DNA from: an uncultured Candidatus Peribacteria bacterium
Lineage (GTDB): Bacteria > Patescibacteriota > Gracilibacteria > UBA1369 > UM-FILTER-53-11
NCBI GenBank assembly: GCA_964354865.1
Contig: CAYHBN010000002.1
Coordinates: 1 to 48,044 of the forward strand
Direction: 5' to 3'
DNA: 48,044 nucleotides
Of the stretch, positions 6,529-41,534 are shown piece by piece. A model generated the notes under the pieces. The model saw only the letters and a list, made by a program, of their open reading frames with translations, searched no databases and was not told where the DNA came from. Positions within the stretch are counted from its first letter, which is position 1. Every line of letters begins with the position of its first letter. The position numbers and the translations under genes were made by a program.

Positions 6529-6819
6529 TGGTGGGCAGGGAGGGATTCGAACCCCCGAAGACGTTAAGCCGACAGATTTCATGTGTCCCTAAGATTTCTC
6601 ATAGGCATGGACTATATCTTTACCATTCCGATTTCTCGATGAAGGTATTCCGGTATCTAGTCTCTACGGCGCTCTCCAACAATGTTGAAGTTCCCACGGT
6701 ATTAGCATATCTCGTTAAAGACTTAGCTTTCACCGTTATCCCGGAAAGTTTACTGTAAGGTTTCCCTTACAGGCTGCCTTTTGACAGTCTGTTGCGTTTA
6801 GCCACTTCGCTACCTGCCC
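6529..6819 (-). tRNA. tRNA-Tyr (anticodon GUA), class II, interrupted by a 204-nt intron in the anticodon
   Basis: The 5' exon (6819-6784) is GGGCAGGTAGCGAAGTGGCTAAACGCAACAGACTGT. The 3' exon (6579-6529) is AAATCTGTCGGCTTAACGTCTTCGGGGGTTCGAATCCCTCCCTGCCCACCA. Joined, they give the loop CU-GUA-AA, a long variable arm and acceptor GGGCAGG/CCTGCCC. The joined sequence closely parallels E. coli tRNA-Tyr as I recall it. Confidence 0.85.
6580..6783 (-). mobile_element. Group I (IC3-like) self-splicing intron within tRNA-Tyr
   Basis: The 5' splice site follows a U. Exon CUGU can pair with intron GCAG (a U-G wobble P1). The intron ends in G. It contains GGGAAACC and GGUGAAAGC hairpins, GUAGAGACUAGA (the J6/7-P7 motif as recalled from the Azoarcus and Anabaena tRNA introns) and a matching AUAGUCC P7' strand. 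No ORF lies inside. Confidence 0.75.
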
Positions 6820-28773: not shown

Positions 28774-29655
28774 ATGCTTAGGATCAATTCTTCATTCGAT
28801 CAGGAATCAACCCCACTCCTTTCAGTACAAGGAAACACCCTGCTTGAACACCGGTACCCACAAGGCTTTGGCATTCGCCTCGTCAATCGAATGAATGAAA
28901 AGGGCTTAATCTCAGACCTATTCGCTTCGCCCGAAATAACATTAGAACTTCATGCCTTATTAAAAAACTATGGCTGCGTAGTAATCGACGACGTAAACGA
29001 CCATGGATTAGAGCCACTTTCATGTAATGTATTTCATAACGTGAATGCTGATGACCCTGTGAGCGATATGTGGCATCAAGATAATTCGGTTGACGATCAA
29101 CTAGCTACAAACATATTGAGTGGAAGTAAAAATGCCGATGAATATATTGCACATATTAAAAACTTAGACTTTTCCATTGTGCTTTATTGTCCTGATCAAA
29201 ACCCGTCACGATCCATACCTACACTTATAGCGGATAGAAAGCTTGTGTCGCAAACCCTCTTAATGTGTGTACAAAATACGGCCAGCAACATAAGATTACT
29301 CTCAATATGCAGCAAAATTTCTGATGCAGTGAAAAAAACAACTCAACACCGCACGGATGAACTTGCCGAAGTATTTGAAAGATATGGAATTGGCCCAGAT
29401 GAAGCAGCGGAAATGTTTACTCTAAACGCACTAAGCCGCGAGGATACACCACCGAATATTCGCGCCTTTCACCGTTATATCGAAGAACAAGTTTCAGGTG
29501 TTTTGAGAATTGGATGGAAACCCAATCGTGCAGTAATTATAAATAACGTAACTGTTGCTCATAAGCGCTCAACTGTTAACCCAAGGTTAACAAATGAACA
29601 AGGCCCATTGAGCAATTATAGAATATTCAATTCTTACACGCATGACAGCGAATAG
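28774..29655 (+). CDS. Possible Fe(II)/2-oxoglutarate dioxygenase (TauD/TfdA-like)
   Basis: WHQDNS (an HxD facial-triad-like motif) and a distal AVIINNVTVAHKRS, resembling the WDNR..HRA segment of TauD. Otherwise unrecognised. Confidence 0.35.
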   Translation: MLRINSSFDQESTPLLSVQGNTLLEHRYPQGFGIRLVNRMNEKGLISDLFASPEITLELHALLKNYGCVVIDDVNDHGLEPLSCNVFHNVNADDPVSDMWHQDNSVDDQLATNILSGSKNADEYIAHIKNLDFSIVLYCPDQNPSRSIPTLIADRKLVSQTLLMCVQNTASNIRLLSICSKISDAVKKTTQHRTDELAEVFERYGIGPDEAAEMFTLNALSREDTPPNIRAFHRYIEEQVSGVLRIGWKPNRAVIINNVTVAHKRSTVNPRLTNEQGPLSNYRIFNSYTHDSE

Positions 29656-30068
29656 TCATGAATGAGAGATGTTTTTGATTTCCATCTTTGAACAGTACTT
29701 GGCGAAATACCAAGTGACCGAGCTATAACGCGAACGCTTAATCCCTGCTGTAGAAGTAGTAATCCTGCGCGAAGCGTTTGTGCGGTTGCATGAAGTCGGT
29801 ATGTGACGTCGTTACGATGTGCGACCCACGTTTTATTGCACGATTTACACATAAAGCGCTGGTACTGGCGCGCATGTACCGTCACATTTCCTGCGCATAA
29901 TTTACCAAAATGGTAGCAGTTAGTATTTGGGCATGACTGATTACGTACCGAGAAGGTAAGTACCGCTCCACCCACTTCGTAGGTACCCGGCAAAGCAGTA
30001 CTTCGTACCGCGCCATTTTGTGACTGGAACTGTTCGAAGCTTTGTGCGGAGTTGAGTTGAGTTTGCAT
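29634..30068 (-). CDS. IS1 InsA-like zinc-ribbon plus HTH protein; no InsB/transposase partner present
   Basis: CPNTNCYHFGK...QRFMCKSCNKTW (compare InsA CPSC...QRYLCSHCRKTW), followed by the HTH LSVRVIARSLGISPSTVQRW. Start set at ATG 30068. Confidence 0.45.
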   Translation of the reverse strand: MQTQLNSAQSFEQFQSQNGAVRSTALPGTYEVGGAVLTFSVRNQSCPNTNCYHFGKLCAGNVTVHARQYQRFMCKSCNKTWVAHRNDVTYRLHATAQTLRAGLLLLQQGLSVRVIARSLGISPSTVQRWKSKTSLIHDYSLSCV

Positions 30069-30382
30069 GGTAGGTAGAGAGTTAGGTGAGTAGAAGCGAA
30101 GATCCGTGAGGACGAGTGAGGGAATCAGAGAATTAGAGGGAAGGAAAGTTACAAAAAAACACCCTTTTGCGGAGGGCGAGTGATGTGATTGATACTTGTT
30201 ATGAGAAGTTTTAAATTCTCTCAAGTGTCGTACACAAATCGCCCCCCTTCATCTTAATAATGAGGGTCTTAATTGTGACGCAAATGAGAGTTGAAACTTT
30301 CATGTGCACTAAATTTACTACAGCAAAACACCTACAGTCAAGTTGGTGTACTCATCAAGTGTGGGGGCATGGCGTCTACATT

Positions 30383-30982
30383 TTACAATTTCTTAAGCCC
30401 ATTGAAAATCACTCGTTCAAACTTCAAGTAATCTTTCTGCATACCAGCAATACATGCCTTCATATATTCCGCACGAGAAGATTTTGAGTAATCGACAAAA
30501 TCATAACCCACATTGAGCGCAAGTAGATCAATAAAAAGGCGAATAACCCTACCATTACCTTCTCGGAACGGGTGAATAGCATTTAACTCAGCGTGAAAAA
30601 GAGCCAATTTAGCAGCTAAAGATTTTTTAGTATCAGTCGCTGTTGGAAAATTATCTTTAAGCAAAATATCAAAAGCCTTTAGCTCATTTTTAATAAAAGC
30701 ACTCGCGCAGAACATCGAAGTACCTTTTGAAATCTCAACAGTCCGTGCCTTGCCAGCCCAAGTATAAAGAGGATCAAGGAAAAATCCGTGAATATCAAAC
30801 AAAAGTTTTGTGGTGAATTTTAGCTTTCCAGATTTGAGTTTTTCGAGAAAATGCTCATAGGTATCTTGAAGAAGAAGCGTCTCAATATCAGTAAGTAGCT
30901 GATCATCTGAAATATTCTTTTTATTCGACAAAACTACTGTGCCCTCCTTGCCACCCACACTATAACGAGAATGCTCGACCAT
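30383..30982 (-). CDS. fic: Fic-domain protein (class I Fic toxin, FicT/VbhT-like adenylyltransferase)
   Basis: Canonical Fic motif HPFREGNGRVIR. Confidence 0.85.
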   Translation of the reverse strand: MVEHSRYSVGGKEGTVVLSNKKNISDDQLLTDIETLLLQDTYEHFLEKLKSGKLKFTTKLLFDIHGFFLDPLYTWAGKARTVEISKGTSMFCASAFIKNELKAFDILLKDNFPTATDTKKSLAAKLALFHAELNAIHPFREGNGRVIRLFIDLLALNVGYDFVDYSKSSRAEYMKACIAGMQKDYLKFERVIFNGLKKL

Positions 30983-32921: not shown

Positions 32922-33389
32922 TCACTTCATCTCAACTCTCTGTTTGCTCATGTATGTTTTAAATCCGTATTTTGCCCAGACTTTTTGACCGACTTCGTTT
33001 TTAACGTGAACGGTTAACTCAACACAGGGAACTTTTTTAGTCTTAAACCAATCAAAAAGTTTCGAGATAAATAATTGCGCTACTCCTTTTTCTCTCCATG
33101 TTTTTTCGACATATATATCGCTGATTAATCCATTTTTCTTAATCGCAAATACAGGGGCGCGGCCACATATTTCTCCGGCTGCAAATCCTATAATTTCGCC
33201 AACATCTACTGCAACCAGTAAGAGTTTTGACGAAGACCCGATATACGATTTGAAACATTTAAAATAAACATCTTTTACATTTTTTGCAGGTTCGTAATAT
33301 GGATCAAAGTCGGCGTGGAGATTGATAAGCTCAACTGCAAATTTGGTAATGAATGGAAGGTCGGCAATTGTGGCTTTTCTGATTAACAT
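32922..33389 (-). CDS. GNAT-family N-acetyltransferase
   Basis: 155 aa. VAVDVGEIIGFAAG...IYVEKTWREKGVAQLF (acetyl-CoA-binding Q/RxxGxG/A-like motif) and ...AKYGF. Start set at ATG 33389. Confidence 0.75.
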   Translation of the reverse strand: MLIRKATIADLPFITKFAVELINLHADFDPYYEPAKNVKDVYFKCFKSYIGSSSKLLLVAVDVGEIIGFAAGEICGRAPVFAIKKNGLISDIYVEKTWREKGVAQLFISKLFDWFKTKKVPCVELTVHVKNEVGQKVWAKYGFKTYMSKQRVEMK

Positions 33390-33399
33390 ATGATCAATA

Positions 33400-33813
33400 T
33401 TAACAGAATCTCTTGTACTCAGGAAAATTAGCCTTAATGTGTTCAAATATCCACTGTGTTTCTGATTGTTTTTTACTGCGGTGATCTTTGCCGTACACCA
33501 GCAAAATGACAATTTTTCCCGTGGCGTTGTTGAGTGAAAAAACCGCCCGATTACCAGATGATTTTGGGGAGACATTTGTACCTGCAACTCTAAAATCGAG
33601 CTTAAAAAATCCAACACCGTCGTCTTGGAAAAACTTCAACGGATCTATGAGATTTGTATCTTGAAAGCCGTAAGCGCGCGCTAACGTTTCAGTGATTGTT
33701 TTCGTAGTTTCAATCCACTGTTTTGGCTTATATTTTCGTAAAAAATCTTTGCAAAAATGCCGCTCGCAGTAGGTTGAGAACTCGACTTCGTATGCAATAT
33801 CTTTAATAAACAT
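33400..33813 (-). CDS. RelE/ParE-superfamily-like toxin (partner of the Panacea-domain antitoxin)
   Basis: 137 aa. FKLDFRVAGTNVSPKSSGNRAVFSL...KIVILLVYGKDH resembles RelE-fold toxins. Its start overlaps the upstream gene by 11 nt. Confidence 0.5.
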   Translation of the reverse strand: MFIKDIAYEVEFSTYCERHFCKDFLRKYKPKQWIETTKTITETLARAYGFQDTNLIDPLKFFQDDGVGFFKLDFRVAGTNVSPKSSGNRAVFSLNNATGKIVILLVYGKDHRSKKQSETQWIFEHIKANFPEYKRFC

Positions 33814-34495
33814 TTTCTGGTGCCTCGTTATTAATAAGCGAGTAGGGAATAACTTCACGCTCCCTGCAAACTTTCCATGGGATCTGTTTATGCGTAAAGT
33901 CGACAATCTCTTGAGTGTTTGCGTTTTTCCATTTTTTACAAATCTCTTTCACGAGCGCGAGCTCTTCGGTATTGAGCACCGAATCATTGGGCTGCTCGAC
34001 AAGAGTCACCAATATCGCATCGCCACTTTGCTCTGACTTGAGCGATTCGTCGTTGTCGATAATGTCGAAAAATTCGATTGCAACAGGACCACGCGCAAGC
34101 CGGTGGTATTCAAAGCCAGAAATCGGCGTGAGCGTTTTGTAGTAGCTCGCAAAATCACAGAGGTAGACGAGTTTTGCTAACTTCGTTTTGGTGATTTTTC
34201 CGTCATCTGCAGCGCCATATTTGATACACTGCAAAATGAGATTATGAAATTTTTGTAAGGATTTTTCGCCAAAATTCTGTGACTTAATTTTCTTCGGCAA
34301 GCTCATTTCTGCATCGAGAATAATCTCGAGAGGGAGGTCAAAAATCTCAGAAATTTTCGTGAGCTCACTAAGCGTTATTTCTCGGTCGCCTTTTTCGATC
34401 AATACAAGAGTGGGGCGCGAAACACCAAGCTTTTGAGCAAGCTGTTGCTGCGTAATCCCCGCCGATTTTCGCAGTTTTACGATGAAGTCCTTCAT
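33803..34495 (-). CDS. XRE-family HTH fused to a DUF4065 (Panacea/SocA-like) antitoxin domain
   Basis: N-terminal LRKSAGITQQQLAQKLGVSRPTLVLIEKGDREITL. C-terminal KTKLAKLVYLCDFASYY...GPVAIEF is typical of DUF4065. Confidence 0.6.
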   Translation of the reverse strand: MKDFIVKLRKSAGITQQQLAQKLGVSRPTLVLIEKGDREITLSELTKISEIFDLPLEIILDAEMSLPKKIKSQNFGEKSLQKFHNLILQCIKYGAADDGKITKTKLAKLVYLCDFASYYKTLTPISGFEYHRLARGPVAIEFFDIIDNDESLKSEQSGDAILVTLVEQPNDSVLNTEELALVKEICKKWKNANTQEIVDFTHKQIPWKVCREREVIPYSLINNEAPENVY

Positions 34496-34502
34496 GCAAA
34501 AA

Positions 34503-34531
34503 AGAATAGCGGATTCACGAAGAAATGTCAA
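34503..34531 (-). promoter_or_regulatory. Consensus promoter for the Panacea TA operon (leaderless)
   Basis: On the minus strand: TTGACA (34531-34526), a 17-nt spacer, TATTCT (34508-34503), then 7 nt to ATG 34495. Confidence 0.7.
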
Positions 34532-34638
34532 GATTCTTTACAATACCGTAATAATTTGCATATTTTATAGATTTTGTATTAATTCTAATTACCAAAAATC
34601 CCGAATAACTAAAATTTGGCTCACAGATTAAACCCGCC

Positions 34639-35505
34639 CTACTCAATCACCGGCGGCTCTCTATAGAGCCCGTAGTCATTGTTACAATACGTACTATAAT
34701 CGTAATCCATTGAGCAGGCTACGAAGTACAATTTGCCGTTAATATCGTAAAAACGACCCCATGATGCAAAGGCAAGGGTGGGCACGCCTTTTACATTTGG
34801 CGCCAAAATTGGATGACCATCATAAAAAACACCAAATCCTTCAAAACCAGGATCATTGCTTACCATTGCGACCTTATTGTTGATCTTAAACGTGCTTGTT
34901 CCTGACACCGAATATGATGGCTCGTTATAACTTCCGTTTATTTGCCACTCCTCATACACTTCGTTGGTGTATGGAACTCGCGTAACTCCATCGAAGATAA
35001 CTGCTGCCGGTACAATATCTCCCTTGTGAGCAGGCAGTGTTTCGCCTTTTTGAAAATGATAATCGAGAATGATCAACCGCTTTGGATCTTTTGGAGAAAC
35101 AGCTATGTTTGGGCGCTGTGAATTCTGGTTGTCGCGGAATGGTCCAAATTTCTTGCCATCACGTGAGACAAACCAGTTGCCCTTTTCGAAATACATAAAG
35201 GCATACGAATCACCATACGACACAAGGTCTGTTATTTTTTCGTAGGTTGGTTGATCGTCAATACCTCCGATAACGAGGTGATCACGTCCTCCACTTGTTG
35301 CAGAAAAAATAACGGGGCCATTGTTATCCAAATATATAACCTGACCGATGAATTCATAAGCACCACCAATACGATCAAACGTAATTGGTTCTTTAGAGGC
35401 AGGAGGGATTGCATTCGGCTGCATTTCTTCTGGGGGCGACCACGGCAAAGTACAGGCAGATAGGGAAAGTAAGAGCAGCGAAATAGTGAGGATTTTGAGA
35501 CGCAT
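34639..35505 (-). CDS. Lipoprotein of unknown function
   Basis: MRLKILTISLLLLSLSAC contains a lipobox. The remainder looks beta-rich. Start set at ATG 35505. Confidence 0.6.
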   Translation of the reverse strand: MRLKILTISLLLLSLSACTLPWSPPEEMQPNAIPPASKEPITFDRIGGAYEFIGQVIYLDNNGPVIFSATSGGRDHLVIGGIDDQPTYEKITDLVSYGDSYAFMYFEKGNWFVSRDGKKFGPFRDNQNSQRPNIAVSPKDPKRLIILDYHFQKGETLPAHKGDIVPAAVIFDGVTRVPYTNEVYEEWQINGSYNEPSYSVSGTSTFKINNKVAMVSNDPGFEGFGVFYDGHPILAPNVKGVPTLAFASWGRFYDINGKLYFVACSMDYDYSTYCNNDYGLYREPPVIE

Positions 35506-35524
35506 AAGGGGATTGTATATCACA

Positions 35525-36229
35525 TCAAACACCATTTATGCTAGCACGAACCGCCGCTTGCAGATCTGAGACCTGGTTGGGAACGGGAATTTCTTGAATA
35601 TATTTGGGCTTTAAACTCTGCGCATCGGGGCCAGCCATGCGTGTTGCTGTATCTAGTTGGCGCAAAAAATACTCGGCGCCTTGTACTATTGCGTTAGGAT
35701 GTTCGCTCGTACCCAGTTGCCGTATTACATGGTCTTGCAGCGCAAGGAGTTTTTTTCTACAAAGTGGATCGGTAAGTAGACTCGCCGGAAGTTTGACCTG
35801 GAATTTTTCTCTCTGTGGAGCGGGACGCATACCGTACTCGTTAGCCGCTACCGTCTGGGGAGGTGTTTCGATAGAGAGCAGATAACCCGCAACCTCTTCT
35901 GGCGTACGCGCTTGCTTTTGAATACCCCCATTCGATGCTCCAACTCCTACAATACGTACTGTGGTACCAACATCTTCTGGAGAATCTCTCATCACGCCTT
36001 TTGTCGTAATAACATCACGGTACAACGTAGAATTCTGACTTCCATCTTCACTACTCACGCTAACGTATCCTTGAAAATTAAAGGTCGGCGCTCTCCAGTT
36101 TTGATTATCAGCATGATACAGATTCTTTAGTGGTTCACATGGAACATTTTGAGCAGTAACAAACTGATCTGTAGTGATCGTGGGGAGGGCGAGGGGAACA
36201 TCTGGAATTTCGTTTATTACATCACTCAT
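35525..36229 (-). CDS. Hypothetical protein (234 aa)
   Basis: Uninterrupted ORF co-directional with its neighbours. No motif recognised. Confidence 0.5.
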   Translation of the reverse strand: MSDVINEIPDVPLALPTITTDQFVTAQNVPCEPLKNLYHADNQNWRAPTFNFQGYVSVSSEDGSQNSTLYRDVITTKGVMRDSPEDVGTTVRIVGVGASNGGIQKQARTPEEVAGYLLSIETPPQTVAANEYGMRPAPQREKFQVKLPASLLTDPLCRKKLLALQDHVIRQLGTSEHPNAIVQGAEYFLRQLDTATRMAGPDAQSLKPKYIQEIPVPNQVSDLQAAVRASINGV

Positions 36230-36259
36230 ATGTCATGCTATACCCATAATTAACGTATT

Positions 36260-36535
36260 TTAGTTATCTAAAACACCAGTGACGTCTTCGCTCGTGTCGT
36301 TTATAGATTGATCTAAAATGGCTCGAGCTTCCTCATATGATAACGTGCCGTTTCCTACTACTTCACGACTATCATTTCGATCAACCGTTACTAGTTTTTC
36401 ATGATGGTGAGGACCTGAAGCCTGCAATCTTGCTGGAACGCGTTCTAATGAATGGCGAGGGCCGCCGACGACCCAAAGAGTATGATCCTTAGGATATTCA
36501 CTTAAGTCTGGTTTTCGTCCGTGTTCTGTTCCCAT
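36260..36535 (-). CDS. Hypothetical protein (91 aa)
   Basis: ORF preceded on the minus strand by TATAAT about 38 nt upstream. No motif recognised. Confidence 0.4.
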   Translation of the reverse strand: MGTEHGRKPDLSEYPKDHTLWVVGGPRHSLERVPARLQASGPHHHEKLVTVDRNDSREVVGNGTLSYEEARAILDQSINDTSEDVTGVLDN

Positions 36536-36667
36536 AAATATATTGAGTTAAATAGTTAAAGTAACTAGAATTATACTAACTTATTCGAGAGATGTCAATA
36601 CCCCAAATAAGCCTAAATAACCAATACTAGACCTAATTTAGCCATACTTCCTCTTGAGCATAGGGAT

Positions 36668-36874
36668 TTATTCTATGATACCAAGTGATTTAAGCAGTTC
36701 GTCTGGATCGTGACCGGCTACTATGAGTGCACCAAATGCCGCCCCAAGTGCGTCCGCAGCATCTTCCATGCTCGCAATATCATCGCATTCAGACGGATCT
36801 ATAAATGCTTGGCAGGCATCGGCAACTATCTGTGAAGTGAGGTCTTCGGGTATTTCTAGGTCATCGAGATCCAT
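36668..36874 (-). CDS. 68-aa acidic protein, cassette copy A
   Basis: About 50 of 68 residues are identical to the 37872-38078 product (hand alignment). Conserved ADAC...SECDD and DPDELLKSLGI. TATACT lies 6 nt upstream of the ATG. Confidence 0.65.
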   Translation of the reverse strand: MDLDDLEIPEDLTSQIVADACQAFIDPSECDDIASMEDAADALGAAFGALIVAGHDPDELLKSLGIIE

Positions 36875-36906
36875 GAGGGGAGTATAGCGGAGGGCTTCAG
36901 AGTTAT

Positions 36907-36945
36907 CTCACCCATACCTTTTTTTCGGCACGATCAACAAAGTCG
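36907..36945 (-). pseudogene. Remnant of the 3' end of a second SemiSWEET gene
   Basis: 33 of 39 nt are identical to 37617-37655, which holds the last codons and the stop of the intact SemiSWEET gene. The remnant translates as ..LLIVPKKRYG* versus ..LLLVLKKRYG*. Confidence 0.6.
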
Positions 36946-36948
36946 TTT

Positions 36949-37362
36949 TCACACAGTTATCTGTATCTCTCTCGATTTACCGTTTAAGGTGAGTTTCAAC
37001 TTATTTAAAAAACCATTTTGACCAAGAAGAATCGTCGTACCTGATTCCGAAAAATAAACGTATGAGTGTAATTGAGTTTTTCTAAAACCACGTTTTTCAA
37101 GGACAATATCAACTTCAATTGGGGATCTGTAGATTGTAAAATAACTGCCTCCTGCTCCTACAAGAGTGTATTGCGGTTGCCCTTTCAAGTTGAGCCCCAA
37201 GATACCAGCAATTTCAATAGGAAGGATACTGTAATCAGCACCAGAGTCGATCAACCCAAAGGATTTAAACTCCAAACCATTTGCATAAAAAGTGACCGGA
37301 ATCAACGGCCGCCATAAACGATCTTCTGCCAAACCAAGAGCCTCAATATAAGGGAAAATCAT
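36949..37362 (-). CDS. Retropepsin-like (clan AA) single-lobe aspartyl protease, copy A
   Basis: LIDSGADYSILP contains the D-S-G-A catalytic motif. At 137 aa it implies a homodimeric active site. Roughly half its residues are identical to copy B. Confidence 0.7.
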   Translation of the reverse strand: MIFPYIEALGLAEDRLWRPLIPVTFYANGLEFKSFGLIDSGADYSILPIEIAGILGLNLKGQPQYTLVGAGGSYFTIYRSPIEVDIVLEKRGFRKTQLHSYVYFSESGTTILLGQNGFLNKLKLTLNGKSREIQITV

Positions 37363-37365
37363 ATT

Positions 37366-37536
37366 CTATCCAGCCATCAAGCCATTAGGAATAAGTGCGT
37401 ACCGAATAGTGTTGTGATCTTTTCGAGTAGCAACTTTATTAGTCAGTTTAATTAATTTTTTATCACTATCAATGACTTTGCTATTTTTGACAGCAATCCA
37501 TCGGCCAAGATATTTTTTCTCAATTTTCAAAGGCAT
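37366..37536 (-). CDS. DUF5678-like small protein, copy A (56 aa; below the ORF-track cutoff)
   Basis: My translation is MPLKIEKKYLGRWIAVKNSKVIDSDKKLIKLTNKVATRKDHNTIRYALIPNGLMAG. The KYxGxWIAxK motif is shared with copy B. The stop is 3 nt upstream of the protease ATG. TAGCAT lies 6 nt upstream of the ATG. Confidence 0.6.
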   Translation of the reverse strand: MPLKIEKKYLGRWIAVKNSKVIDSDKKLIKLTNKVATRKDHNTIRYALIPNGLMAG

Positions 37537-37617
37537 ACTCTAATGCTAGCCCAACGCACTTTTCGGTGCAAGAAAACCATTTTAAACCTGAACTAACTCT
37601 GAACCAACAGATTGCAC

Positions 37618-37866
37618 TCACCCATATCTCTTTTTCAGCACAAGCAACAACGTCGCCCCTACGAACAAAATCACATTGGTGACCCAGATGAAGGGATCCA
37701 TTTTCATGAGTCCGTAGACGATCCAAAAGAATCCATTGAGCATGCCAATCAAAATTCCCGACCACGCAATATCGCGCGTATGCTTTGTTTTAAACGAGAC
37801 CCACACTTGTGGGAAAAATAACAAGCTAGCGGTGATAGAGCCGAGAAGGCCGAAGAGGGGGAGCAT
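37618..37866 (-). CDS. SemiSWEET / PQ-loop sugar transporter (3 TM, 82 aa)
   Basis: Three TM helices with a PQ motif (LLFFPQVW) and a basic loop, matching the typical size of bacterial SemiSWEETs. Confidence 0.7.
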   Translation of the reverse strand: MLPLFGLLGSITASLLFFPQVWVSFKTKHTRDIAWSGILIGMLNGFFWIVYGLMKMDPFIWVTNVILFVGATLLLVLKKRYG

Positions 37867-37871
37867 GGGGA

Positions 37872-38078
37872 TTATTCTAAGATACCGAGTGATTTGAGGA
37901 GTTCGTCTGGATCCTTATCAGCAGCTATGAATGCGCCATATGCCGCGCCAACTGCATCTATAGGATCTTCCATACCGGCGATATCATCACATTCAGAGTC
38001 ATCAATAAATCCACGACACGCATCGGCAATTTCTTGAGGAGTGAGGGCTTCCGGTATTTCTAAGTTATCGAGATCCAT
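37872..38078 (-). CDS. 68-aa acidic protein, cassette copy B
   Basis: Paralogue of the 36668-36874 gene. TATACT lies 6 nt upstream of the ATG. Confidence 0.65.
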   Translation of the reverse strand: MDLDNLEIPEALTPQEIADACRGFIDDSECDDIAGMEDPIDAVGAAYGAFIAADKDPDELLKSLGILE

Positions 38079-38113
38079 GAGGGGAGTATATCAAAAGACT
38101 TTTAAACTCTCGA

Positions 38114-38527
38114 TCACCCAACAATCTGTATTTGTTTATTCTTCGCGTTCAGTGTGACTTTCAGTTTGCTCAAAAATCCACTTTGGCCAAGCAGAATAGC
38201 ACCCTCAGTATCTGAAAAATAGACGCGAGAATTAAGCGCGATAGTTTTACATCTTTTTCTTTTCAAGATGATTTTTATGTCAGTAGGAGCTCGGTAGGTA
38301 TTGAAAATATTTCCGCCGGCTCCACACACTGAATAGCTTTGGAGTTTAGTGAGATTAATGCCTAATTTCACTGCTACGCTCATGGGAAGTATCGTGTCGT
38401 CTGAACCAGAATCTACCATGCAGTAGTCGCTATATATCAAACCATTGAATGAAAATTGTACAGGAATAAGGGGACGCAAAATGCGCTCCTCGAACCTACC
38501 CATTAACTCGATGTAAGGGAAAATCAT
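38114..38527 (-). CDS. Retropepsin-like (clan AA) single-lobe aspartyl protease, copy B
   Basis: MVDSGSDDTILP (a D-S-G motif). 137 aa. Shares the N-terminal MIFPYIE and LRPLIPV segments, GAGG, and ILLGQSGFLSKLK with copy A. Confidence 0.7.
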   Translation of the reverse strand: MIFPYIELMGRFEERILRPLIPVQFSFNGLIYSDYCMVDSGSDDTILPMSVAVKLGINLTKLQSYSVCGAGGNIFNTYRAPTDIKIILKRKRCKTIALNSRVYFSDTEGAILLGQSGFLSKLKVTLNAKNKQIQIVG

Positions 38528-38549
38528 AGAGACTAAATAGTTTACTGTT

Positions 38550-38741
38550 CTACCAATTCATATGAGCAAAGCCACCAACCAAACGCCCTTTTGGAACGAG
38601 CATATATGAAATATCTTCTTCGTTGCGTTTATCAAATTTAGCTTTGAGTTTATCGCCATCATTTCCACTACCAATAACTTTAAGATCTTTGATGGCTATC
38701 CATTTGCCCTGATACTTGTACTCGATTGTAAGATGTTTCAT
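38550..38741 (-). CDS. DUF5678-like small protein, copy B
   Basis: MKHLTIEYKYQGKWIAIKDLKVIGSG... aligns with copy A. The ORF track extends to a TTG at 38762. ATG 38741 is preferred from the alignment. Confidence 0.55.
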   Translation of the reverse strand: MKHLTIEYKYQGKWIAIKDLKVIGSGNDGDKLKAKFDKRNEEDISYMLVPKGRLVGGFAHMNW

Positions 38742-38841
38742 ACGCAAAAGATTATTGAACAACTCAATGCTAGACCAATGCGCTTATTGGAGCAAGAAAA
38801 CCATTTTAAACCTGAAATAATTATGAACAGGCAGGGAAGAT

Positions 38842-39123
38842 TTATTCTGTAAACTTTGGCCAACGGTTATATCCAACCACAGGATTATTAGAGTCGAACT
38901 TTTTAATAAACTCAACCTCCATGGCATTTACTTCTTCGTTCGAAGCATCTGGTGATTGCCACAATATTTCACGCCGAATTGTAAAATCCTTCCTTTCTTC
39001 TTCGCTAAAATCCTGTTCGAGAAGTTTACTATCAGGGCTTCCGAAATATCGAAACGTACCGGTCAAATCTTTTCCAACGTATATTTTACCGTTTGGGTAG
39101 GTGATTTTATAAATCCATTTCAT
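38842..39123 (-). CDS. Stand-alone GIY-YIG nuclease-domain protein (93 aa)
   Basis: WIYKITYPNGKIYVGKD (GIY...YVG), a downstream Arg (TIRREIL), Glu (NAMEVEFI) and Asn (GYN), in the order expected for a GIY-YIG catalytic core. No DNA-binding extension. Confidence 0.55.
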   Translation of the reverse strand: MKWIYKITYPNGKIYVGKDLTGTFRYFGSPDSKLLEQDFSEEERKDFTIRREILWQSPDASNEEVNAMEVEFIKKFDSNNPVVGYNRWPKFTE

Positions 39124-39144
39124 ACAGAGTAATTAAAAATAACT

Positions 39145-40461
39145 TTACGCTCCATACGCCACCTCAAACACCCCCTGTATCATCTCTGGGATTTTTGCCT
39201 CTGGTACCCCTGCAAATGCAACGCGTAGGCCGGCAGCGCTCGGCACGACACCAATTTTTTTTTCGGTAAGGAGTCGCTCGGCGATAGCCTTCGAGTCTGA
39301 GCCAGGAGTGTTGATGAAACAGAAGAATCCGCCATTACATGGGTCGAGTTTTAACTTCGCAGGACCGTACTTTGCGAATCCCTCTTCGATCGCCGCCATC
39401 ATAACTTTCCAACGTGCTCCGAGCATGTTAATCGTGTCGCCACACTCTTTGTCTACGACCTCCATTTTGTCCATAAGTGCATCTGCTAAAAGTTGTCCGT
39501 GGTGGCTAACCTGAGAAATTTCACCGCGTACGAATCCACCAATTTTTGATGCCAGTTCAGCGTTCAGTGTTGCTTTTTCTTCTTCGGTAAAGGCATGTCC
39601 GTCGAGTGAATTTACAAATGCCGTAATGAAGGCGACGCGGTATCCGTAGGCCAACATAACTTTTGAAATGCCATCTAATTTAAGTACTGAAAAGTTTGGG
39701 TGTTTCACGAAAACATGTGGCAAGATTGAGGCCTTGCAACCAACTGAGTCGTAGACGTATCCCTCGTAGGCGTCGTCTAATACCGCGACAAATGAGACGG
39801 CTGGGAACTCTGTGCACAATGCATCGAATCCTACACCGATTTTTTTTGCATCTTCGGGTGAAGGCATGAACCCCGTTTGATTGTGAGGAAAGTTTATAAG
39901 CATCACCACCTTTTTAGATTTCTGTGCGAGCTCGCGTGCACTGTCGATTAAATATTGTGGATTAAATTTTCCCGCCTCATCGAAAAGTTTAAACGTTGCG
40001 ATTTTAATTTCTTGTACGTCGGTAAAAATATGTTCGTAGTTTTCCCATGATTTTTCTGCGGTCAAAATAGTGTCACCGGCGTTCAATAACAAACGACCTG
40101 CGAGCGCAATCGAGTGGGTAATTCCATTCGTCACAATCGGCATCGTTGCGTTGTTCTCAAATCCAACAGCGTTTTTCATCATTCGAGCCATCCATTTTTT
40201 TCGTAACGATTCAATACCGGGAATCGGAGCGTACGCAAAAACTTTTCCCTTTGGAGCGCGCGCCAAAATCGCCTCACCGACAAATTCCCGTGCGCATGGC
40301 ATGTGAGAAATTGTACCGTCATCATCTTGCGCAATGCCGATCGTTCCATTAATCGTCGCCTCTTTTGACGCGCGGTTACTCCAATAAAAAATACCTTTAG
40401 GAGTTTCCATCGTTGAACCAACCTTTGAAAGTGCTGAGAAGAGTGAAGTTGAAGAGAGCAT
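39145..40461 (-). CDS. PLP-dependent aminotransferase, class I/II (aspartate aminotransferase-like)
   Basis: Fold-type I pattern: NFPHNQTG, DDAYEGY, and LDGISKVMLAYGYRVAF with the Schiff-base lysine. Confidence 0.75.
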   Translation of the reverse strand: MLSSTSLFSALSKVGSTMETPKGIFYWSNRASKEATINGTIGIAQDDDGTISHMPCAREFVGEAILARAPKGKVFAYAPIPGIESLRKKWMARMMKNAVGFENNATMPIVTNGITHSIALAGRLLLNAGDTILTAEKSWENYEHIFTDVQEIKIATFKLFDEAGKFNPQYLIDSARELAQKSKKVVMLINFPHNQTGFMPSPEDAKKIGVGFDALCTEFPAVSFVAVLDDAYEGYVYDSVGCKASILPHVFVKHPNFSVLKLDGISKVMLAYGYRVAFITAFVNSLDGHAFTEEEKATLNAELASKIGGFVRGEISQVSHHGQLLADALMDKMEVVDKECGDTINMLGARWKVMMAAIEEGFAKYGPAKLKLDPCNGGFFCFINTPGSDSKAIAERLLTEKKIGVVPSAAGLRVAFAGVPEAKIPEMIQGVFEVAYGA

Positions 40462-40562
40462 TGAGAAGAGGATTAGGAATTGGCGATATTCTACATGACG
40501 CCTACGCGCATTGACAAAACCTATTTTATTGATACAATGCGCTCCCGAATCTCGTTTATTAT

Positions 40563-41123
40563 ATGAGCTTAAACCTAGAAAAACTCGTAATTACAGCCGT
40601 TCTCGCCGCGTGTGGTCCGAAAAATGGAGAACCCACTACTGAAGTAACAGGCACCCGTAATCAAATCTACACAAAAGTTGTGAATAACGTGGAAGAAATT
40701 TCACGATTTAGCGGTATTAGAAATACCTATGCAAAGCTCAAAAAACTCTCTGAGGAAAAACATGCTGGAGCAAGCGCAAATTTACCAGATGTACTCTCTT
40801 TTAAGACAGCGCATGGCACGCTTGTTACAGTCAAAATAGTCTCAAATGGACGACAACTCATGATTGAAAACAACTACGACATTTTATTCCTCGACCTAGG
40901 TACACAAACACCTTTTGAAGGAGACTGTATTCAGCTAAACGACAGCCGATACTGCAAGACAGATGACCCGTCGATCGACGGCACTATTTCACGTGGGCTC
41001 GAAGCCGCATTTAAATATAACTCGGGCACCAAAAACGTATTTGCCGCCTTTGGAGTATCTCCCAAAGCATTTCCCGAAGATCGCGCGCAAAAAATAATGA
41101 CTGAACTTCTGAAGCACCTATAA
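40563..41123 (+). CDS. Lipoprotein of unknown function
   Basis: LVITAVLAACG contains a lipobox. TTGACA-16 nt-TACAAT promoter at about 40511-40538. Confidence 0.55.
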   Translation: MSLNLEKLVITAVLAACGPKNGEPTTEVTGTRNQIYTKVVNNVEEISRFSGIRNTYAKLKKLSEEKHAGASANLPDVLSFKTAHGTLVTVKIVSNGRQLMIENNYDILFLDLGTQTPFEGDCIQLNDSRYCKTDDPSIDGTISRGLEAAFKYNSGTKNVFAAFGVSPKAFPEDRAQKIMTELLKHL

Positions 41124-41138
41124 TATTACCAATACACC

Positions 41139-41534
41139 ATGCCACTATTTGATGATGAATTTAAAACAGTAGATGCAGACGCACCAGAAGAGACTACTGA
41201 TGTTGAGGAAACTCTCGACGCGCAGCCACAAGCCGAAGCAGTAGACCCTTCACTCTCATCGATGGAAAGCGATACAGAAATCGCGCGTCGCGAAGCAATG
41301 GCGAAATTTCTTGCAGGATATGTTAATTCGGGAGCCAGCATTCAAAGGTTTTTTGACAATCTCAATCCTAATGAATTAAGAAACATCGGAGCAGACCTGG
41401 TTGCCAAAGAGCACATAAAGCCAACTGACATTGGTGCACATGAGCGTGATACTTCAAGTGATATTAGAAAGATGAGAGACCCAACAGGAGTTGCACAACA
41501 AGTGAGAGCGCTGATTTCTAAATTAATGAGCTAA
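41139..41534 (+). CDS. Acidic hypothetical protein (131 aa)
   Basis: ORF with an acidic N-terminal half. TATAAT lies 15 nt upstream. Confidence 0.45.
   Translation: MPLFDDEFKTVDADAPEETTDVEETLDAQPQAEAVDPSLSSMESDTEIARREAMAKFLAGYVNSGASIQRFFDNLNPNELRNIGADLVAKEHIKPTDIGAHERDTSSDIRKMRDPTGVAQQVRALISKLMS

Follow-up and report, generated by a model that had tools for sequence, protein, structure and literature searches.

The stretch of DNA analysed here is 48,044 nt long and comes from an uncultured Candidatus Peribacteria bacterium (the window; all coordinates are window positions unless a handle such as L011 names another locus). The region under study, 36668-38841, contains six open reading frames (ORFs), all on the minus strand, which a sequence-only reading had described as two tandem copies, A and B, of a three-gene cassette coding for a DUF5678-like small protein, a retropepsin-like aspartic protease and a 68-aa acidic protein. 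We recovered the six ORFs at the positions given for them, but the conserved unit is highly likely to be a two-gene mobile module, composed of the DUF5678 gene and the protease gene. As judged from sequence comparison, this unit is an autonomous operon of about 0.7 kb that has its own predicted promoter and codes for a protease of 137 aa and, ahead of it, for a DUF5678 protein of about 55-65 aa. The real object has only two genes, yet it is far more widespread than one window implies.

Conservation of the DUF5678-protease pair

An exhaustive profile search with the protease as query gave 998 representative clusters at E ≤ 1e-3 (about 1,000 at 50% identity), most of which are stand-alone proteins of 125-155 aa. 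K-mer-indexed homologue searches with all three proteins returned near-identical sequences only, and the wider family described below comes from the profile search and from locus scans. When 185,579 species genomes were scanned with the protease, 22 loci were obtained, 17 of them with E ≤ 2e-9, and in all 17 a DUF5678 ORF was located immediately upstream on the same strand, the two ORFs overlapping by up to 11 nt or being separated by up to 19 nt. On the side of the Candidate Phyla Radiation (CPR), these loci belong to Peregrinibacteria, Peribacteria, Gracilibacteria, Abawacabacteria, another Patescibacteria genome and one Saccharibacteria genome; the others are from two Woesearchaeota, one Nanoarchaeota, one Nitrosopumilaceae and one Ignavibacteriales. 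In copy A the DUF5678 stop codon is 3 nt away from the protease ATG, as had been noted before, and the tight coupling proposed from this gap is kept over CPR bacteria and archaea.

The association was also observed in the opposite direction. A reciprocal metagenome search with DUF5678 as query gave 15 loci, and the protease was directly downstream in 13 of the 14 that could be assessed, the exception being L036 with an orphan DUF5678. Moreover, all of the syntenic upstream ORFs that were tested independently against Pfam DUF5678 gave a match (20/20). Pairwise identity matrices of DUF5678 and of the protease correlate at r = 0.92 over 28 pairs, which indicates that the two genes travel together. 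Flank comparison of the module loci revealed no third gene common to them, and a hidden Markov model (HMM) of the acidic protein matched none of the 32 other module-bearing loci. Thus, the gene-neighbourhood survey, which had been set beforehand as a test of whether the three genes co-occur, upheld the pairing of DUF5678 with the protease and did not extend it to the acidic gene; the compact autonomous module of the sequence-only reading survives as a two-gene unit. By these comparisons, the module is inherited as a unit and is patchily distributed over CPR, DPANN, Nitrosopumilaceae archaea and a few other phyla. The DUF5678-retropepsin association was not described in the literature searched.

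Production of the two proteins as one chain was considered and rejected. The two genes of copy A are in frame, and a MIF-PY site is present at the protease N-terminus, which would allow stop-codon read-through and autoprocessing; however, spacing and frame vary among the loci, and the consensus at this site is MxFxY, in which the Pro is not conserved. Natural DUF5678-protease fusions were absent among the top 150 relatives.

Divergence of copies A and B

A tandem duplication of the whole cassette is contradicted by the divergence of its parts. Between A and B, amino acid identity is 44% for DUF5678, 49-50% for the protease and 74% for the acidic protein (78% at the nucleotide level, with 50 of 68 residues and both Cys residues shared, exactly as described earlier), and synonymous divergence (dS) is saturated for the proteases versus 0.70 for the acidic genes. 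Moreover, A and B are each nearer to foreign copies than to one another, and this holds for the proteases and their DUF5678 partners alike. For protease A, at least 12 homologues in foreign genomes and metagenomes show 65-53% identity, and DUF5678-A has its nearest relatives in other genomes at 66-59% identity, compared with 44% to DUF5678-B. Protease B shares 78% identity with the protease of locus L001 and no more than 49% with any other sequence. DUF5678-B and its L001 orthologue are 86% identical, and the ratio of nonsynonymous to synonymous divergence (dN/dS) with respect to L001 is 0.07 for DUF5678-B and 0.11 for protease B. Copies A and B are thus paralogous modules that separated long ago, and the cassette was not duplicated in tandem recently.

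This layout is no assembly artefact, since an independent ENA assembly (L003) agrees with window positions 39418-36478 at 99.93% identity.

The acidic gene belongs with SemiSWEET

The layout as first given had left out an 82-aa SemiSWEET gene between the two copies (Pfam MtN3_slv, E = 1.5e-9; PQ-loop, E = 4.5e-7). It is conserved in two related loci, L001 and L002. L002 is a 120-kb contig of a sister genome with about 77-85% nucleotide identity to the window, and its genes follow in the order aminotransferase, acidic gene, SemiSWEET, an oppositely oriented 136-aa gene and a 234-aa gene. The acidic gene of L002 is packed at 7 nt and 6 nt from its two neighbours, neither DUF5678 nor protease is present at this locus, and acidic B of the window is orthologous to this gene between aminotransferase and SemiSWEET. 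In L001, the order is the aminotransferase end, an unrelated 65-aa gene, SemiSWEET, a B-type DUF5678, a B-type protease and a helix-turn-helix (HTH) gene; here the module is present and the acidic gene is absent. The only matches of the acidic-protein HMM were to L002, which is module-free, and to L003, which is the same DNA as the window, and the protein forms only three clusters among 5.8 billion sequences. With dN/dS values of 0.11-0.23 overall (0.12 for acidic B, 0.23 between A and B), the acidic protein is, as far as selection on its codons indicates, the product of a real gene.

Traces of the duplication remain on both sides of acidic A. Upstream of it, a 48-nt remnant is 79% identical to the 3′ end of SemiSWEET (37608-37655); directly downstream, an acidic-stop/SemiSWEET-start junction is followed by the SemiSWEET 3′ end, fused on. 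Because acidic A is flanked by SemiSWEET remnants, the duplicated block consisted of the acidic gene and SemiSWEET, without DUF5678 or protease, and we read the remnants as a record of this duplication and of subsequent rearrangement. Given that dS between acidic A and acidic B is 0.70 and that between the proteases is saturated, the acidic-gene duplication is a separate event, younger than the protease A/B split. On this comparative evidence, the acidic protein is a resident gene product that belongs with SemiSWEET and is unrelated to the module.

Properties of the two proteins

Both proteases are 137 aa long and carry the LIDSGAD or MVDSGSD motif, as had been described. Both of them fall slightly short of the Pfam gathering score (23.8 and 20.7 bits versus 24.3 for Asp_protease_2, gag-asp_proteas and RVP); among the relatives, 102 of 118 match Asp_protease_2 at E ≤ 0.01. 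When compared with PDB, the family profile found Ddi1 RVP domains, retroviral proteases and Rickettsia ApRick at E = 4e-7 to 1e-4. An AlphaFold2 (AF2) model of protease B, built from a shallow 3-sequence alignment, had a predicted local distance difference test (pLDDT) score of 69, with 70-90 in the core, and in the Foldseek comparison of this model with PDB, which had been proposed as a check, the top 50 hits were all retropepsins (target-normalised template modelling score 0.50-0.67). The protease is very probably a clan-AA retropepsin-like enzyme.

The active site is well preserved over the family. Residues D39, S40, D43, A52 and G114 are invariant among 28 module pairs, and D[ST]G[AS] is intact in 144 of the 151 protease relatives examined. 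The flap-like G69-A-G-G is 82-89% conserved and L112-L113-G114 is 85-100% conserved. The module protease shares with the known retropepsins (HIV, HTLV and FIV PR, the Ddi1 RVP domain, Rickettsia APRc/ApRick and RimB) the DSGAD loop, the GxGG flap, the hydrophobic-hydrophobic-Gly motif and a single lobe of about 120 residues. Unlike them, it is a predicted stand-alone cytoplasmic protein with an obligate DUF5678 partner gene, and has no polyprotein, membrane anchor or UBL/UBA domains; nothing in the viral enzymes corresponds to its conserved N-terminal extension of 17 residues (MxFxY...RP). A single-lobe retropepsin chain with one catalytic Asp needs to dimerise for activity, and we infer that the 137-aa protease, being of that size and having one catalytic Asp, must do the same.

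The small proteins are DUF5678-like, as had been suggested, with both scoring above the Pfam gathering threshold of DUF5678 (PF18929; 25.2 bits for DUF5678-A and 36.2 bits for DUF5678-B versus 23.2). Conservation is concentrated in two patches, an N-terminal GKW[VI]A β-hairpin and a C-terminal [LV][IV]PxGxIxG tail that ends the protein. CPR-type DUF5678 is very basic (median isoelectric point about 10), and other branches are neutral or acidic. Searches of Pfam, NCBIfam, PADLOC and PDB found no relatives besides DUF5678 itself, and in the literature searched DUF5678 is mentioned by a single paper, which has no bearing on the module.

Upstream elements and predicted promoters

The sequences upstream of modules A and B are 86% identical over 63 nt, which is far above the identity of the coding sequences. 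Both of them contain a promoter-like TTGnnn-N17-TAnnnT arrangement, as do most modules of the CPR type; it was found in 18 of 23 modules, upstream of DUF5678 in the window, L001, L004, L007, L009, L013 and L026-L039. In 15 of these 18 the distance from the start of the -35 hexamer to the ATG is 51-57 nt. The spacer often opens with YAAAAAG and sometimes contains a short palindrome (GCAC..GTGC or TGCCTT..AAGGCA). The -10 hexamer of module A stops 6 nt short of the ATG, and the sequence suggests that the module A mRNA is leaderless. Homology between L001 and module B starts at 38799. Two further repeats, a 15-nt inverted repeat flanking module A and a 20-nt repeat common to the upstream elements and the protease coding sequence, were judged to be probable chance matches.

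For the acidic genes, TATACT-N6-ATG had been interpreted as a promoter. The sequence does precede both genes, but its promoter role is at most putative: a scan of the region came out at chance level (7 sites versus 6.2 expected), and it is missing from the acidic orthologue of L002.

A perfect consensus promoter, TTGACA-17-TATAAT (12/12), is located elsewhere, at 36570-36598 on the minus strand, ahead of a 91-aa ORF (36535-36260, minus strand). This ORF has no family match, and L002 has the opposite-strand 136-aa gene in its place.

Mobility and decay of the module

One and the same locus was found in three states: empty in L002, with a B-type module after SemiSWEET in L001, and with two modules in the window. 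The B-type module of L001 occupies the post-SemiSWEET position that is held by the A-type module in the window, and the presence of differing modules at a shared position marks the DNA from the aminotransferase gene to DnaB as a variable island receiving different module lineages. By its closest relatives, the window falls within Peregrinibacteria or Peribacteria, the former being the probable assignment of the genome that carries the island. Elsewhere, one metagenome-assembled genome (MAG) has two module loci (L006 and L011), and the neighbours of the module differ from locus to locus and are unrelated housekeeping genes; the 57 flanking genes sampled were housekeeping genes, GroEL/ES, SmpB, NAD synthase and tRNA synthetase among them.

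Decay was observed on one side of the pair. The protease is truncated, split/frameshifted or missing beside an intact DUF5678 in L011, L012, L013, L031 and L036 (Table 1), and the opposite case, an intact protease with a broken DUF5678, was never seen among the loci.

Possible function of the module

The architecture, the patchy and mobile distribution, the asymmetric decay, the co-location with other toxin-antitoxin (TA) genes and the kinship to the defence candidates PDC-M52 and PDC-M08 together led us to propose, as the leading reading but one that falls short of being probable, that the DUF5678-protease pair is a TA-like or defence module, in which the protease would be the effector and would be neutralised by DUF5678. 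Decay of the protease only is expected for a toxin accompanied by a harmless neutraliser. The pair would then work like a type II TA or abortive-infection module, in which DUF5678 is made first and in stoichiometric amounts and keeps the protease inactive via direct binding. Two ways of inhibition can be envisaged: either the C-terminal tail [LV][IV]PxGxIxG of DUF5678 would lie in the substrate cleft as a pseudo-substrate, or its GKW[VI]A hairpin would block dimerisation. Once DUF5678 is lost or degraded, the protease would be released; as a homodimer it would have one active site built from two DSGAD loops, and as effector it would cleave cellular or invader proteins.

Several known systems can be compared with this proposal. 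The module resembles type II TA systems in being a compact two-gene operon with its own promoter, in which a small first gene is translationally coupled to a larger enzyme, and also in being patchy, horizontally mobile, multi-copy, often decaying and co-located with other TA genes. It differs from them in that an aspartic-protease toxin has no known precedent and DUF5678 has no recognisable antitoxin or DNA-binding domain. The Xre/COG2856 (ImmA/IrrE) systems are likewise mobile two-gene units of a protease and a small partner coupled to it, and they are switched by cleavage of that partner. The likeness is an analogy only: their enzyme is a metalloprotease and their partner an HTH repressor, whereas the module has an aspartic protease and a DUF5678 protein that lacks an HTH.

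PDC-M52 and PDC-M08 are the closest in architecture. They are phage-defence candidates of PADLOC, nominated for their embedding in restriction-modification (RM), BREX or DISARM loci (bioRxiv 10.1101/2024.01.29.577857, Payne et al.). Like the module, they consist of a small upstream protein overlapping or abutting a stand-alone retropepsin-like protease of about 130-140 aa; unlike it, they have a different small partner and an RM/BREX/DISARM setting instead of the CPR/DPANN housekeeping genes found here. Among relatives of the window proteases, 83 of 118 match the PADLOC model PDC-M52B and 70 of 118 match PDC-M08B. Protease B itself gave a weak match to M08B (E = 4.8e-4, nearly full length), protease A gave no match, and the PDC-M52A and M08A models matched none of 20 DUF5678 proteins. 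With the A component unmatched and the B component matched weakly, the module is placed by these models outside PDC-M52 and PDC-M08, although it shares their architecture. Loci L022 and L024 contain bona fide PDC-M52B proteases (E = 1e-32 to 1e-36), and their small overlapping upstream partner is from another family.

The Planctomycete (Fimbriiglobus) and Verrucomicrobial relatives (L023 2181-3354, L022 2651-3357, L024 2754-3390) are all bona fide PDC-M52B proteases, each with a different small upstream partner, and L023 has two such pairs in tandem. The partners upstream of these Planctomycete/Verrucomicrobial proteases at first seemed to resemble known addiction-module antitoxins, but this likeness had no Pfam support, and one partner is a weak PDC-M52A match.

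The proposal could be taken further. The module may represent a new class of TA or abortive-infection system, with a homodimeric aspartic protease as effector and DUF5678 as a pseudo-substrate or anti-dimerisation inhibitor, that is, a compact immune or addiction module typical of CPR/DPANN and a prokaryotic stand-alone counterpart of the regulated activation of retroviral protease; we consider this extended version doubtful.

A number of observations weigh against a TA or defence role. DUF5678 has no recognisable antitoxin or DNA-binding fold, its profile gave nothing significant against PDB, and a single-sequence AF2 model of DUF5678 was uninformative (pLDDT 49). There was no enrichment of defence genes among the 57 sampled flanking genes, and no homologues were found in phage, plasmid and viral-contig collections. 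The asymmetry of decay consists of five cases from MAGs and metagenomes, and faulty assembly may account for frameshifts there. The related PDC-M52 and PDC-M08 are no more than candidate defence systems, a literature search gave no paper on retropepsin TA or defence pairs, and to our knowledge no retropepsin-like protease has been shown to be a TA toxin.

The same coupling and co-inheritance would suit an enzyme-substrate or enzyme-adaptor pair equally. In such a physiological protease-partner system, the main rival reading, which we regard as unlikely, DUF5678 would be either a substrate or precursor, for instance one whose tail is released by cleavage, or an adaptor or activator that guides the protease to its targets. 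Cleavage could take place in the extended C-terminal tail that DUF5678 conserves, and the housekeeping nature of the flanking genes agrees with this reading. Bacterial retropepsins that have been characterised have definite substrates in the cell (PMC11957791, PMC11957051, PMC8649778). Enzymes such as RimB, APRc and the Rlo peptidases are retropepsin-like and each process particular cellular proteins. However, presence or absence in close relatives, diverged multiple copies, recurrent decay and scatter over bacteria and archaea fit poorly with a physiological role of this kind, and neither a conserved third gene nor a pathway context accompanies the pair.

The retroviral-protease fold and motifs, the mobility of the unit and the homing-endonuclease-like GIY-YIG gene that abuts module B might instead indicate a remnant or domesticated piece of a virus or retroelement, from which the polyprotein-processing protease was retained. 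This origin is very unlikely, as no reverse transcriptase, integrase, capsid or other viral gene is present beside any of 32 loci, neither protein matches IMG/VR viral contigs, GenBank phages or PHROGs, and both stand-alone ORFs show purifying selection. Finally, a conflict cassette of three genes in tandem duplication, whose acidic protein (charge about -17) would inhibit or regulate the protease through a conceivable electrostatic interaction with the basic protease and DUF5678, accounts for the acidic gene after each protease gene of the window, but this model is largely refuted already by the comparative data on divergence, distribution and SemiSWEET remnants given above, and is most improbable.

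If the pair is indeed a TA or defence module, aspartic proteases would join the effectors of TA and abortive-infection systems, where none is established, and a function would be gained for Pfam DUF5678 and for a stand-alone prokaryotic retropepsin family of about 1,000 clusters. CPR and DPANN have few recognised defence systems, and a recurrent compact two-gene module is a useful lead there. The module is also a simple model for the control of retropepsin dimerisation or activity by a partner acting in trans. The correction made here shifts the target of future work to the two-gene unit and away from the acidic protein.

Features of the region and its surroundings

The features are listed in Table 1. 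Along the minus strand, the order is aminotransferase (40461-39145), GIY-YIG-like gene, module B, acidic B, SemiSWEET and module A, followed by the SemiSWEET 3′ remnant, acidic A, the internally deleted SemiSWEET, the 91-aa gene and a 234-aa gene. No RNA families were found within the region.

Table 1. Positions of the genes, remnants and upstream elements in and beside region 36668-38841, and of the decayed proteases at other loci (locus coordinates)
Feature	Position	Strand	Description
Conserved upstream element, module B	38766..38828	-	TTGCTC 38795-38790, 17-nt spacer, TAGCAT 38772-38767
DUF5678-B	38550..38741	-	63 aa; small partner, putative neutraliser
Retropepsin-like aspartic protease B	38114..38527	-	137 aa; MVDSGSD, GAGG flap, LLGQSGF
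Acidic protein B	37872..38078	-	68 aa, charge about -17; resident gene outside the module
SemiSWEET (PQ-loop/MtN3) transporter	37618..37866	-	82 aa; resident gene separating modules B and A
Conserved upstream element, module A	37542..37604	-	TTGCAC 37571-37566, 17-nt spacer, TAGCAT 37548-37543
DUF5678-A	37366..37536	-	56 aa; small partner
Retropepsin-like aspartic protease A	36949..37362	-	137 aa; LIDSGAD, GAGG, LLGQNGF
SemiSWEET 3′-end remnant	36898..36945	-	48 nt; between protease A and acidic A
Acidic protein A	36668..36874	-	68 aa; second copy of the resident gene
Internally deleted SemiSWEET copy	36638..36661	-	Start fused to 3′ end; mini-ORF MLKRKYG*
GIY-YIG-like gene, free-standing	38842..39123	-	93 aa; extra DNA with module B relative to L002
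Decayed-protease loci	L011 3001-3213; L012 3001-3422; L013 3001-3312; L031 383-799; L036 2498-2665		

The surroundings contain TA-type and nuclease genes, as had been pointed out before, with Fic, HTH-Panacea, GNAT and the GIY-YIG-like gene nearby. The 93-aa GIY-YIG-like protein matches a PHROG homing endonuclease (E = 5e-6) over the catalytic domain only, its Pfam and NCBIfam matches are weak, and the gene is absent from L001 and L002. The variable island also holds the HTH-Panacea and GNAT genes, and the Fic gene is just beyond DnaB.

The HTH-Panacea gene is of a SocA-like antitoxin type and is next to GNAT; the minus-strand intervals 33803-34531, 32922-33617, 30383-30982 and 29634-30224 cover this pair, Fic/DOC and a TnsD-like HTH gene. 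HTH-Panacea and GNAT probably form a PanA-type TA pair, for which a DNA comparison of window positions 34000-41500 gave no match in L002.

In another part of the window, a match to the Rfam group I intron family (51.3 bits, barely above the gathering score of 50) is located at 6588-6794 on the minus strand, directly downstream of a 197-aa ORF (7418-6825, minus strand), and a complete tRNA-Thr(UGU) gene (7570-7495, minus strand) is located shortly upstream of that ORF.

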